This document shows, one piece after another, positions 2,501 to 6,301 of a DNA stretch of 6,469 bases. The notes under the pieces were generated by a model. It did no database searches and had not been told where the DNA came from. It saw nothing but the letters and a program-made list of their open reading frames with translations. Every line of letters starts with the position of its first letter. Position 1 is the stretch's first letter. The position numbers were made by a program, and so were the translations under genes. Source of the stretch: a virus (taxonomy: Duplodnaviria > Heunggongvirae > Uroviricota > Caudoviricetes). The DNA is taken from IMG/VR virus record IMGVR_UViG_2648501150_000029, one strand, 5' to 3'.

Positions 2501-2539
2501 ACAACAGGAATTGTTTCGGTATAACTTCAGGAGTTTTCT

Positions 2540-2713
2540 ATGGAAGATCAAAAAGCAACCAAGCCACAGGTTAAGTTCGACACAATGAAAGCATTCGCAG
2601 GTATGGGTGCTGCTGTTGAAGTTCTGATGAAGGCTGCTCCTAATGCGTTCACTCACGCTACTGTCTCTGGTAAAGAGCAGCAGGGTAAGCTTCGTCGTCG
2701 CAAAGCAGCATGA
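2540..2713 (+). CDS. Small hypothetical protein, 57 aa (MEDQKATKPQVKFDTMKAFAGMGAAVEVLMKAAPNAFTHATVSGKEQQGKLRRRKAA)
   Basis: Not in the ORF track (under 60 aa). ATG at 2540 preceded by AGGAG (2529-2533) at 6 nt spacing; stop TGA 2711-2713; followed within 20 nt by an intrinsic terminator. Basic C-terminal tail. No family recognised. Confidence 0.45.
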   Translation: MEDQKATKPQVKFDTMKAFAGMGAAVEVLMKAAPNAFTHATVSGKEQQGKLRRRKAA

Positions 2714-2732
2714 TCATAGCTGGTGCTTTTTG

Positions 2733-2758
2733 AAAACCCGCCTTTAGGCGGGTTTTTT
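2733..2758. terminator. Bidirectional rho-independent terminator
   Basis: aaaaCCCGCC-ttta-GGCGGGtttttt: a 6-bp GC stem (2737-2742 / 2747-2752) flanked by an A-run and a T-run, so it ends in a U-tract on either strand. It lies between the plus-strand small gene (stop 2713) and the convergent minus-strand excisionase-like gene (stop 2761-2763). Confidence 0.7.
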
Positions 2759-2760
2759 AT

Positions 2761-3042
2761 TTAGTGATGTTCTTTGCCCTTCTGTTTGCTTGTTCTGACC
2801 TGTTCCCACTCGATACGTCCTTCTTCTCGTCTTTTGTCTATGTATTCCGCAAGATCCTGAATATTGATGCAACGTTTTGCTTTTTGTGATGTGCCGATGC
2901 GATATGTTGGAACGGGCAACTTACAAGCGTTTGCTTTTGCTTCTGCCGTGGCTGGACTCATGCCAAAGTACTTTTGGCTAACTGCTGAGAGTTCAATGTT
3001 AGGGGTATTGAATTCAGCCATCAGTAAAAACAAGGTGTTCAT
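2761..3042 (-). CDS. Excisionase-like / PrtN-family small DNA-binding regulator, 93 aa
   Basis: Best start is ATG at 3042-3040, preceded by GGAG at 6 nt spacing; the ORF-track start at 3069 is a GTG with no SD. Product MNTLFLLMAEFNTPNIELSAVSQKYFGMSPATAEAKANACKLPVPTYRIGTSQKAKRCINIQDLAEYIDKRRE... has the MNTLFLLMA N-terminus that I associate with PrtN/excisionase-like prophage proteins. It is the last gene of the prophage operon. Confidence 0.6.
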   Translation of the reverse strand: MNTLFLLMAEFNTPNIELSAVSQKYFGMSPATAEAKANACKLPVPTYRIGTSQKAKRCINIQDLAEYIDKRREEGRIEWEQVRTSKQKGKEHH

Positions 3043-3078
3043 AATTTTCTCCATCAAAACCGGCTGCACCCGGGAAAA

Positions 3079-3651
3079 TCATAATTCTGTGCTGGTGGCA
3101 GGAATTAATTTCTGCCAGATAGCGGAAACATATTTTGCCTGATGACGGGCATCAGCCAGGGCGTTGTGCCGTTCGCCATCGAAAGGCATGTCCATTTTGG
3201 GGTCGAATCCGATGGAACGCCCAAGCGTAACGATCGTGCGTACATCGTGGTCATTCCAGTATGCCCACGGGCAGATTTGTCCTGCTCGCTCATAAGCTCC
3301 ACGTAAAATTACGTTGTCGAAGGTGGCTCCGTTACCCCAGACTTTTAAATATTTCGTATTGTCTGCGTGCCGGTTAATGAAATGATTTAGTTCTGAGAGA
3401 GCATCGCTGATCGACAAAGTATCATCAATACAGATTGCAGCTCGTGCTTCAGGGCTTTGTTTCAACCACCACAGGATGGTATCGCCGTCAGGTGTAGCTC
3501 CTTGCCCCATAGCACTTTCCAGGCTAACAACCGTATAGAATTCTTGTCCGATGTCTCCGGTTTCTGGAGTGAAGAACACCGCGCCAATGGAAACGATCGG
3601 TGCATCCTTATTTTTCCCCATCGTCTCAAGGTCGATCATTAAGTTGTTCAT
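3079..3651 (-). CDS. DEDDh-family (DnaQ-like) 3'-5' exonuclease, prophage-encoded, 190 aa
   Basis: ATG at 3651-3649 with AGAGGTG SD 5 nt upstream; it overlaps the upstream stop (TGATG). N-terminal Exo I motif MIDLETMG (D-x-E) and C-terminal H-x-A-x-x-D-A (ERHNALADARH), diagnostic of DEDDh exonucleases. By position this is the full-length counterpart of the ypdJ exonuclease fragment I recall in K-12 CPS-53. Confidence 0.75.
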   Translation of the reverse strand: MNNLMIDLETMGKNKDAPIVSIGAVFFTPETGDIGQEFYTVVSLESAMGQGATPDGDTILWWLKQSPEARAAICIDDTLSISDALSELNHFINRHADNTKYLKVWGNGATFDNVILRGAYERAGQICPWAYWNDHDVRTIVTLGRSIGFDPKMDMPFDGERHNALADARHQAKYVSAIWQKLIPATSTEL

Positions 3652-4460
3652 CACTTCACCTCTTGTGATGGTTTTGCTGCAAAATACTCGATACCTTTAT
3701 CCCAGATAGATTTTATGGTCGACCACGTGACTGGCACTTTAATTTCAATACGTCCGCTCCCGTCACAGGTATCGCAATCATCATCGCCAAAGCATTCCAG
3801 GCAGCTTATAAACGTAGTTTCTGAAAATTCACCGGATAGCGCCCCCTTAGCGCCGTTCTCGGCTGTTAGTCTCTTCGGCACCATAACCCAACCATCCGGA
3901 GTTACCGGAGAGTTGCCAGACAGTGCGTTCTGCAATCGTTCCAGCTTAACGTATTCCTGAACCCTGTTTCCGTCGCACGCCTGAAGCCATTGCACAGCCT
4001 TTTGCGCATCAGTGTGAAAGGCACAAGTGCGACCGTCATCAAATTGCATTTCGTAGAGGTCAGCAACCTGTTTAAACTGCGTTTGTGGCAACTTGTAAGC
4101 CTGGCTTGCAGGTACGGCACCATAGAGCATGGCAGCGCGGCAGGCGTTCCAGCCTTCATCAAAACCGACTATGCCATTATTTAAAGACGGACGAGCATCT
4201 GGCACCACCGGCACTGGCTTGGCTATATATAGCGGCTGAACATACCAGCCCTTTGATAACCAACTGTCAGCAATGTTTTTACTCCTGGTTATTGCCGGAA
4301 TACCTAAGCCATTGTCTGAATGCAGCCATGCCACCGGATCCTCTTCCAGCGATGCCAGAGCAATTTCATAAGCACGGCGCTCAACATTGTCTCGCACGTC
4401 CATGCTGCTGATTCGTTCTTTGATTTCTTTAATCAGTTCTTTATCGGTAAATGTGGTCAT
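3651..4460 (-). CDS. Hypothetical prophage protein, 269 aa, with C-terminal CxxC / CxxCxGxG zinc-ribbon-like motif (in the YfdT position)
   Basis: ATG at 4460-4458 with GGAGG/GGAG upstream; overlaps the upstream stop (TAATG). C-terminus ...TTFISCLECFGDDDCDTCDGSGRIEIKV contains CLEC and CDTCDGSG (CxxCxGxG, the DnaJ-type zinc-finger signature). Stop TGA 3653-3651. Function unknown. Confidence 0.6.
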   Translation of the reverse strand: MTTFTDKELIKEIKERISSMDVRDNVERRAYEIALASLEEDPVAWLHSDNGLGIPAITRSKNIADSWLSKGWYVQPLYIAKPVPVVPDARPSLNNGIVGFDEGWNACRAAMLYGAVPASQAYKLPQTQFKQVADLYEMQFDDGRTCAFHTDAQKAVQWLQACDGNRVQEYVKLERLQNALSGNSPVTPDGWVMVPKRLTAENGAKGALSGEFSETTFISCLECFGDDDCDTCDGSGRIEIKVPVTWSTIKSIWDKGIEYFAAKPSQEVK

Positions 4461-4822: not shown

Positions 4823-5349
4823 TTGCGTAACTCCGATAATTCGTTAAAGCGTTCCATAAACATCCCGTAGGCATGGCCTGGAGCCAGTGGAATCACGTTG
4901 AACATCTCTGTTGCCGGGATACCTTCCAGTACAGGCCAGAAAGAGCCATCATCAAGCCCGAGATCGCGGCGTTCGGTTGCCAGCATGATGAGATCGGCAT
5001 ATTTCACGGGCGTACTCATAACCGGTGGTAACCCGTATTTCTCACGGATTACGGCGTCTATTTTTTCTTCCATCCGTTTATAGTCAGGAAGAAGGCGTTT
5101 CAGTGGTGCGGGAATGTCCTGGCAATACGCTTCTGTTGCATCATGCATTAACGCTTCAAAAGCAAATTCCTGCGGCACCAGCTGGCTGCAAAGAACCGCA
5201 TGTTGGGCGACGCTGTAGAAGTGCGAAAGATGACCGGCAAAGCGACAGATATTTGAAAGGGAAACCGCGATATCGTTAATATCGATGTCGTCTTTATTTA
5301 TCCTGTCATAATAAAAATGCTTCCCAGAAAAAGTTTTGATAAATGACAT
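4813..5349 (-). CDS. yfdR: HD-domain phosphohydrolase (5'-deoxynucleotidase-like), YfdR, 178 aa
   Basis: Best start is ATG 5349-5347 (MSFIKTFSGKHFYYD...) with GGAG 6 nt upstream; the ORF-track start at 5376 is a GTG without SD. HD-domain signature visible: ...H-x-x-x-H... (GHLSHFYSVAQH) and ALMHDATEAY (the H-D dyad). The 178-aa length matches K-12 YfdR as recalled. Confidence 0.8.
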   Translation of the reverse strand: MSFIKTFSGKHFYYDRINKDDIDINDIAVSLSNICRFAGHLSHFYSVAQHAVLCSQLVPQEFAFEALMHDATEAYCQDIPAPLKRLLPDYKRMEEKIDAVIREKYGLPPVMSTPVKYADLIMLATERRDLGLDDGSFWPVLEGIPATEMFNVIPLAPGHAYGMFMERFNELSELRKCA

Positions 5350-5442
5350 TTTGTTCTCCACGTATATGCGCTGCACCGCGCTGAATTCTGGTAAAAAGAA
5401 TCCCTCACCATCCGGCGATTATTGAGTAAATTACGTTTCCAT

Positions 5443-5464
5443 AAATGCCCCCGCAGGGGCATTT
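5443..5464. other. Perfect 22-bp palindrome / stable hairpin between yfdQ and yfdR
   Basis: aaatgcccc-cgca-ggggcattt: a 9-bp perfect inverted repeat with a 4-nt loop. It lies 13 nt downstream of the yfdQ stop and about 85 nt upstream of the yfdR start on the minus-strand transcript. No clean U-tract follows on either strand, so it is not a canonical intrinsic terminator. Confidence 0.5.
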
Positions 5465-5476
5465 GCAGTAATGAAA

Positions 5477-6301
5477 TCAGGCGGTGAAAGTACCAATAAA
5501 GGTTTCTACTTTGCTGTCCTTGAATTTCTCAACAAGCAGATCACGAAATTCGTTAGCCATTTCTTCCTGCACCGCCTCCAGCTGAATAATGCGCAGAACC
5601 AGTACAGGACGATCGCCAGTGATAATGCTGAGGCGTAATTTAAACGGACGTTCTTTCAGACCTTCAAACGGAACGCATTTAAATTCAAATGCCACTGGCA
5701 TAATGTCTTTGGTCTTCGCTTCGACAGACTCCATCAGGGAGCGTTTGCCGCTGAAGTCATTGTCTTCAAAATCAGCGGTCTGGTTCGCTTCAATTGTGAT
5801 TTTACGGATCGCCGCAGCCGCTTTGGTTGCCTGAATGGCGTCACCATTAGCATCAAAGCCCACAAGGTAGTCTGCCCAGTCTTCAATCCATTCTGCCAGT
5901 GACTTCTGGGAGTTACGCTCGCCATTAACAGACAACAGAGCAGAGAACGGTGCTGTCTTTTTCAGTTTGAGAGTGGCGGTGTTATCTGCGTGACCTGGTT
6001 CATCAATAGTACCCAGGTTAAGCACACTGACGGCTCGCATATTATCGGCATCGATAAAGCAGCGGGTGCCTTCATCTGCAAGATCTTTAGAATAACGGGT
6101 AAAGTCATCGATGCTGGCAGTGGAAAGTGCACCACGGAAACGGAAACGATTTAAATTAAATTTTTCCAGATCATGAATGCGGAAATTCTCAGGCAATGCC
6201 ACAGCATCGGCACCAATCTTACTGATAATTTCATTAACACCCTGAGCAGAAATAAGGGCATGGATTTGATTAATTGCGGTTGAGTCTAAGTTCTGAGACA
6301 T
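5477..6301 (-). CDS. yfdQ: DUF2303-family prophage protein YfdQ, 274 aa
   Basis: ATG at 6301-6299 with GAGG 8 nt upstream; stop TGA 5479-5477. Product [70 protein letters not shown]... matches in length and N-terminus what I recall of E. coli CPS-53 YfdQ. Identity is from recall. Confidence 0.75.

Follow-up and report, generated by a model that had tools for sequence, protein, structure and literature searches.

A 57-residue protein gene behind the Panacea cassette of an Escherichia coli prophage, probably a stranded partner of a phage GNAT-fold protein

Background

Directly behind a Panacea-domain gene and its overlapping partner, a prophage in the dusA gene of Escherichia coli carries a third, short open reading frame on the same strand, and the question raised by this arrangement is whether the small gene works with the cassette as its third component (as an earlier note had proposed) or reached this place in another way. 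The stretch of DNA analysed (6,469 nt, IMG/VR record IMGVR_UViG_2648501150_000029; hereafter the window, to which all coordinates refer unless another locus is named) is a piece of the E. coli chromosome with the end of dinF, yjbJ, zur (minus strand) and a truncated dusA, followed from ~ 1260 by a prophage. The latter is lambdoid, integrated in dusA, and closely related to the phages mEp460, SKA5 and Lys8385Vzw. The truncated 5′ fragment of dusA (~ 1154–1318, a RefSeq pseudogene in the matching strain) is followed by 78 nt that are shared with the attP side of mEp460, and together they are, judged by their sequence, the left junction of the dusA-integrated prophage. Prophages that integrate in dusA and carry a PrtN-type excisionase were reportedly described by Farrugia et al. 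in 2015.

The cassette itself consists of a Panacea (SocA-like, PF13274, E 2.2e-19) antitoxin-domain gene of 190 aa (1512–2084, + strand) and a partner gene of 139 aa (2081–2500, + strand; PHROG 19071), the presumed toxin, the start of which overlaps the Panacea stop codon (ATGA). The partner start is placed at 2114 (128 aa) by RefSeq and at 2081 (139 aa) by the Lys8385Vzw record and the ORF list; since the ATGA overlap at 2081 fits translational coupling, the longer form is favoured. Ahead of the three genes, the + strand has a single promoter-like site, TTGACC-17-TAAACT (1357–1385, 9 of 12 positions). On the other side, the PrtN-family excisionase gene (2761–3042, minus strand) is convergent and, being a backbone gene of the dusA prophage, lies outside the unit, with an exonuclease gene and further early genes beyond it on the minus strand. 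With a Panacea gene, a small overlapping partner and a third ORF within 100 nt, the window thus resembles the known PanAT cassettes.

Results

The small gene (2540–2713, + strand) encodes a basic protein (pI 10.2) of 57 amino acids (MEDQ...GKLRRRKAA) from an ATG start, 6 nt upstream of which lies the Shine-Dalgarno sequence AGGAG (2529–2533). The partner stop at 2500 leaves a gap of 39 nt, and the GC content of the ORF is 0.48, compared to 0.43 and 0.39 in the two upstream genes. In all of these respects (the reading frame with its GKLRRRKAA end, the AGGAG at 6 nt, the 39-nt gap and the less AT-rich composition) the earlier note had described the locus accurately. It had also called the ORF unannotated, which is not the case: the protein is recorded as WP_000390072.1 (hypothetical protein), as gp24 of mEp460, and in Lys8385Vzw and SKA5.

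Over its full length (residues 1–57 against profile positions 1–57 of 57, E 8.4e-36) the protein matches PHROG 2741, a phage protein family without assigned function, of which it is, by this profile match, a member. Homologues, with identities reaching down to 53–67%, are found in phages and prophages of Escherichia, Salmonella, Enterobacter, Atlantibacter, Pseudescherichia, Franconibacter, Cronobacter, Hafnia, Serratia, Edwardsiella, Brenneria and Photorhabdus. All of them have a Shine-Dalgarno-like purine run at a constant distance from the ATG, with differing sequence around it, and indels among them keep the frame. An alignment of 14 diverse coding sequences gave a median dN/dS between pairs of 0.17 (maximum 0.33), compared to 1.5 and 1.6 in the two shifted frames of the same alignment, and 54 of 59 columns vary at the third codon position, against 32 and 33 at the first two. 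The optimal-codon fraction (computed with a list of optimal codons) is 0.75, the highest in the window. The patterns of conservation show the 57-aa ORF to be a genuine protein-coding gene of phages, and a conserved one. The family is a narrow one: a profile HMM search against 1.84 billion representative proteins retrieved 15 clusters, all of them stand-alone proteins of 53–61 aa apart from two long Ala-rich chance matches, and no informative domain fusions. Literature searches with the accession, the PHROG number and the name of the phage gene yielded nothing.

Downstream of the stop codon, a conserved 3′ untranslated stretch, CATAGCTGGTGCTTTTTG (2714–2731, + strand), of which the core GCNCTTTTTG is kept even in distant homologues, leads into an intrinsic terminator at 2732–2757 (+ strand; 2732–2762 for the element as a whole) with an 11-bp stem (six G-C pairs), a 4-nt loop and a T-run. 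The + strand unit closes with this terminator, immediately next to which lies the stop codon of the excisionase gene, read in the opposite direction. The terminator had been described as strong and bidirectional, of which the first half holds for the + direction; in the other direction no more than four T follow the stem (TTTTC) and the site is absent from the scan, so that it is a strong terminator for + strand transcripts only. A G+C-rich hairpin with a U-run also ends every small-gene homologue that was folded. In the scan, no terminator-like site was found on the + strand between 1512 and 2732, and with a gap of only 39 nt to the partner gene it is therefore probable that the small gene shares a transcript with the two genes upstream, the candidate being one of 1.4 kb that would start at the site at 1357–1385 and end at 2757.

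Just 5′ of the terminator, a U-rich stretch (GCNCUUUUUG) is conserved where synonymous sites are saturated (2714–2762 in the window; L005–L009, L093 and L179). It resembles an Hfq-type 3′ module, and no Rfam family was matched at threshold: with Rfam 15, searched at permissive E-values, the best match on the small-gene region had 29.4 bits where the gathering score is 55, and all matches were driven by the terminator. A local hairpin over the small-gene stop codon, taken from an RNAI-like Rfam alignment, was not consistently reproduced across homologues. Elsewhere in the window, a weak STnc100 match between the yfdQ-like and yfdR-like genes (5306–5485, minus strand; 20 bits against 47, E 0.43) is probably due to chance.

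The linkage of the small gene to the Panacea cassette was examined in IMG/VR, where 74 loci have a gene for a protein related to the 139-aa partner. All 60 loci in which the partner is at least 99% identical carry the small ORF, and none of the 14 diverged Panacea-plus-partner cassettes (50–86% identity, L159–L172) does. The earlier note had proposed conservation beside homologous pairs as a check, with consistent absence there counting against a third component, and absence is what was found in 14 out of 14. In one of these loci (L159, IMG/VR 2791354940_000012, 398–480) the Panacea pair (86% identity) is followed, at the same prophage site, directly by the terminator and then xis, without the small gene.

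The conserved neighbour of the small gene elsewhere is a different one, here called c0, which encodes an acidic GNAT-fold protein of ~ 178 aa (177–181; gp23 of mEp460, PHROG 4350). Of the 95 loci recovered via the small protein, ~ 52 have c0 directly upstream, in all genera except Cronobacter, while a Panacea pair takes this position in the near-identical E. coli lineage only. Seen from the other side, the small gene accompanies c0 in all 80 IMG/VR loci that were found via c0, in the same orientation and with its end ~ 360–370 nt after c0, and in all 89 c0 loci it lies 90–200 nt downstream; c0 without the small gene was never found among these 89. The c0 homologues of Hafnia, Photorhabdus, Edwardsiella, Brenneria and Serratia are each followed by a homologue of 54–58 aa, and even the three most diverged relatives of the small protein (35–45% identity) lie behind proteins that match the c0 profile (hhalign probability 99.5–100%), which indicates that the two genes have co-diverged. 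Neither protein matched a model in Pfam, NCBIfam or PADLOC, and a comparison with PDB sequence profiles brought no meaningful match to the one or the other.

The reverse situation, a small gene without c0, occurs in two lineages, namely the Panacea type of E. coli and Cronobacter. In the Cronobacter loci (L095–L097, 5667–6156) the small gene is preceded by an unrelated ORF of 85 aa, and its place is between the genes for terminase and portal, in opposite orientation. The encoded protein has ...QGKRRK as its C-terminus, without the otherwise conserved terminal Ala-Ala. The window itself contains no GNAT gene.

Phage genomes carry the pair of c0 and the small gene in no fewer than four places: between attP and xis (E. 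coli), behind a cI-like repressor gene (Brenneria), between Q and holin (Hafnia, Serratia, Edwardsiella and metagenomic contigs) and in the tail/baseplate block of a myovirus (Photorhabdus). Such a distribution is moron behaviour, and by its genomic positions the pair is a mobile two-gene moron unit of temperate Enterobacterales phages. Known phage morons include bor and lom of lambda, rexAB after cI, and stx between Q and the lysis genes. Like these, the unit sits at cargo sites (attP-xis, Q-holin, after cI) with a terminator of its own, and it is present in some phages and absent from relatives (e.g. L159, at the same site). It differs in being a two-gene unit of which the second gene is a codon-optimised one for 57 aa behind a structured spacer, and in having a promoter of its own only as a candidate. 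In the Hafnia loci (L090 4150–5109, L091 4051–5109, L092 995–1954) a gene with a RelA/SpoT domain lies directly upstream of c0, between Q and holin, and matches the PADLOC candidate defence family PDC-S33 (E 1e-112), which places the Hafnia pair in a hotspot for defence cargo. In Brenneria (L178, 3568–4865) c0 starts 41 nt after the cI-like repressor gene, on the same strand, and is followed by the small gene; by analogy, this layout resembles that of lambda, with rexAB behind cI, and points to expression during lysogeny.

Between c0 and the small gene, native loci have a spacer of 93–196 nt (196 nt in the mEp460 type, e.g. L002 2815–3013; further L005–L009, L090, L093, L176, L178 and L179). 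A conserved motif, TAGACG-N16/18-TAGGAT, overlaps the c0 stop codon and is absent (deleted) in the window. It agrees with a promoter at 8 of 12 positions, its second hexamer is preceded by TG in distant members, and it was not reported by the promoter scan. The spacer further contains three conserved hairpins (CCAATCG/CGATTGG, AAGGTTAGC/GCTACCTT and GAGAC/GTCTC, the last of which abuts the Shine-Dalgarno sequence), with almost no compensatory changes in the consensus fold of the native spacer.

How the small gene came to stand behind a Panacea cassette becomes apparent from a comparison with mEp460. In BLAST alignments, homology both to mEp460 and to a c0-type Escherichia locus (L004) stops at 1318 and restarts at 2527, the flanks (1241–1318 and 2527–3673) being 94–98% identical to mEp460, and identities over both comparisons ranging from 93 to 98%. 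The 1208 nt in between (1319–2526, + strand), which carry the Panacea cassette, are unrelated to the 803 nt found at the same place in mEp460 and replace the c0 gene and 196-nt structured spacer of mEp460-type phages. The GC content is 0.41 inside this segment and 0.47 on both sides. The right joint is located 13 nt before the ATG of the small gene, i.e. inside the ribosome-binding region, with the AGGAG on the retained right arm, and since this same joint is common to all Panacea-type loci, a single event is indicated. The window therefore looks like a recombinant, with the left part from a phage carrying the Panacea pair and a terminator, and the right part from one carrying c0, the small gene and its terminator; the existence of L159 as a third architecture supports such an origin, and its arrangement likely represents the type of the other parent. 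The alternative that had been offered for the small gene in the earlier note, a separate moron of different composition, is essentially right, the step in composition falling together with the joint at 2526/2527.

Among complete E. coli genomes, the small gene is found in 566 records, 205 of them Panacea-type and 361 c0-type. These numbers add up exactly, which means that the two types are essentially mutually exclusive and that Panacea-type genomes do not have c0 elsewhere. The pair of c0 and the small gene is present in 358 of 5426 complete E. coli genomes (~ 7%), O157:H7 strains included, and four copies are on plasmids; the 205 genomes with the recombinant include many avian or ESBL isolates.

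The consequences of the loss of c0 can be seen in the sequence of the small gene. All 103 Panacea-type copies that were examined have an intact ORF and a good Shine-Dalgarno sequence. Counted as distinct variants rather than events on a tree, and on draft-derived contigs, the Panacea lineage has 15 nonsynonymous and three synonymous changes (per-site ratio ~ 1.5), compared to two and seven (~ 0.08) in the c0 lineage of E. coli when sampled alike (Fisher p = 0.004). Four of the changes (P34H, K50E, A33V and V26A) hit positions that are invariant or nearly so in the alignment of close homologues, and A20V/T, A57V and R54L hit well-conserved ones. It thus appears that the small gene is under relaxed constraint without c0, and an excess of nonsynonymous variants is indeed expected if the function of the small protein depends on c0. 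The same excess could instead reflect diversifying selection.

With respect to the proteins themselves, AlphaFold2 (with 24 homologues) predicts the small protein to be a single helix (residues 15–37, pLDDT 73–82) between disordered tails, with a mean pLDDT of 67; small residues are abundant in the helix (AFAGMGAAVEVLMKAAP). In the tail, a conserved E-x-Q-G-K/R precedes a run of basic residues with Ala-Ala at the very end (RRRKAA in the window). Of 36 family members, 30 end in AA and four in VA, the two exceptions being the Cronobacter forms without c0. The C-terminal degrons of ClpXP substrates include ..LAA (ssrA), ..VAA (RseA fragment) and RRKKAI (MuA) (PMC8138137), and the resemblance of the small-protein tail to these is suggestive. 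The basic tail had been read before as a sign of nucleic-acid binding; its conservation is confirmed, but with the Ala-Ala at its end a degradation tag is at least as good an explanation. The two families have opposite charges, with a median pI of 4.5 for c0 and 10.2 for the small protein. In c0, the conserved features are a Y...GF motif with invariant Y148, G152 and F153, and an H-P-L-x-G-R-M segment, presumably located where the helix begins that in GNATs holds the acetyl-CoA pyrophosphate. Among the proteins that c0 matches in structure are TacT3, TacT2, AtaT and KacT.

Discussion

Following these results, it seems that the small gene natively belongs to the c0 unit, lost its partner when the Panacea cassette recombined in, and is now a passenger; the probability of this reading is put at roughly 0.7. 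A single recombination would have replaced c0 and the spacer with the Panacea cassette, while the ribosome-binding site, coding sequence and terminator of the small gene were kept. The gene would now be transcribed by read-through from the cassette promoter, with its own terminator ending the transcript, and its product, deprived of c0 and under relaxed constraint, would have become a passenger. In this it would be similar to orphan antitoxins and anti-addiction genes, with a small partner that is kept without the enzyme, putative read-through expression and a drifting sequence; the difference is that the toxin and antidote roles of c0 and the small protein are themselves putative.

What the small protein does in its native setting can be stated with less confidence. 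A tentative but reasonable reading, falling somewhat short of even odds, is that it is an abundant, short-lived and antidote-like binder that restrains the GNAT protein c0. It would be made in excess (by virtue of the strong Shine-Dalgarno sequence and the highest optimal-codon fraction in the window), be short-lived through the conserved basic tail and Ala-Ala resembling a ClpXP degron, and bind the acidic c0 through its small-residue-rich helix and basic tails, thereby holding the enzyme in check. This idea follows from the fact that c0 never occurs alone in 89 loci, while the small gene stands alone in two lineages, together with the degron-like tail, the strong Shine-Dalgarno sequence, the codon optimality and the complementary charges (c0 acidic, the small protein basic).

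A comparison with the known GNAT-type toxin-antitoxin systems is obvious, as the native small gene adjoins a GNAT-fold protein of ~ 175 aa, as in TacAT, AtaRT and KacAT, in which a short C-terminal segment of the small partner blocks the enzyme. The antitoxins of such systems have a DUF1778/RHH domain and are encoded upstream of the toxin (PMC9177977). The small protein lacks this domain (no Pfam match, and a single predicted helix), its gene lies downstream of c0 behind a long spacer, and c0 is acidic (pI 4.5) and reached no Pfam, NCBIfam or PADLOC model. Given the missing DUF1778/RHH domain, the reversed gene order, the long spacer, the acidic enzyme and the absence of a family model, the pair is not filed as a GNAT-type toxin-antitoxin system. 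GNAT toxins that acetylate tRNA have a basic surface to bind it, and the acidity of c0 therefore argues against a toxic activity of this type. That the pair is an undescribed toxin-antidote or anti-phage moron, with a highly expressed, ClpXP-labile basic protein of one helix, encoded downstream behind a structured spacer, restraining an acidic GNAT-fold enzyme, and that the orphan in the window would, like an anti-addiction gene, give the lysogen immunity to the GNAT of incoming related phages, is regarded as rather doubtful.

Of the readings that compete with that of a stranded partner, the one that survives best is that the small protein acts independently of c0 (e.g. by binding a host protein, nucleic acid or the membrane with its helix and basic tails) and is a portable single-gene moron often found travelling beside c0. 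The strict co-occurrence and co-divergence with c0 throughout the family do not fit with this, nor do the relaxed constraint without c0 and the loss of the conserved C-terminus from the Cronobacter copies. On the other hand, the small gene has stayed intact in 205 E. coli genomes and a Cronobacter phage lineage that lack c0, it has a strong Shine-Dalgarno sequence, an optimal-codon fraction of 0.75 and its own terminator, and in native loci there is a conserved promoter-like motif just upstream. The 103 Panacea-type copies, all intact and with a good Shine-Dalgarno sequence, also speak for such an own function, which on balance is considered unlikely.

Less favoured, and distinctly unlikely, is that the small protein serves c0 as a substrate or cofactor, with acetylation of its N-terminus or lysines turning it into an active effector. 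A substrate would be expected to leave loci with c0 only, of which 0 out of 89 were seen, and no lysine is invariant family-wide (K50 and K31 are replaced by R in some members). Moreover, the conserved degron-like C-terminus suits a labile inhibitor better.

A functional, regulatory or nucleic-acid-binding third part of the Panacea toxin-antitoxin cassette, making 1512–2758 a three-gene system, is what the arrangement suggests at first sight: the small gene follows the pair after 39 nt in the same orientation without a predicted terminator in between, every near-identical copy of the cassette has it in intact form, and PanAT architectures of three genes, with accessory genes, do exist (PMC8832971). 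The same study (Kurata et al. 2022, PMC8832971) found accessory third genes in small fractions of the genomes, however, and judged them not to be general to neutralisation. In the present case the third ORF is limited to one near-identical E. coli lineage, and, as the joint at 2527 shows, it derives from the other parent. The diverged homologous cassettes lack it in 14 of 14 cases, L159 consisting of cassette, terminator and xis only; its conserved partner elsewhere is the GNAT-fold gene c0 and not Panacea; and in the Panacea context it accumulates mostly amino-acid-changing variants (15 nonsynonymous against three synonymous). The proposal of a third component, with which the analysis started out, has thus become very unlikely.

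Finally, that the region acts mainly as RNA (a small RNA or a regulator derived from the 3′ end) with an incidental ORF is highly improbable, since the dN/dS values and codon-position pattern show selection on the protein, homologue indels keep the frame, and the several Rfam matches on 2662–2765 are all below their gathering score and driven by the terminator hairpin, even though the 3′ untranslated stretch and terminator are more conserved than synonymous sites.

Conclusions

Taken together, the Panacea cassette of this prophage is, by comparison with its relatives, a two-gene system, and the small gene is a leftover of a cassette exchange at the attP-xis cargo site. For the window, this removes the false lead of a three-gene Panacea system and leaves a stranded, annotated hypothetical gene of modest interest. 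The locus is at the same time a natural example of the swapping of defence or toxin-antitoxin cargo, in which a replacement of 1.2 kb with a joint in the ribosome-binding site has stranded a gene that is visibly relaxing. Of moderate interest in its own right is what the analysis brought out beyond the window, namely an uncharacterised and tightly linked pair of a GNAT protein and a 57-aa protein in phages of many Enterobacterales.
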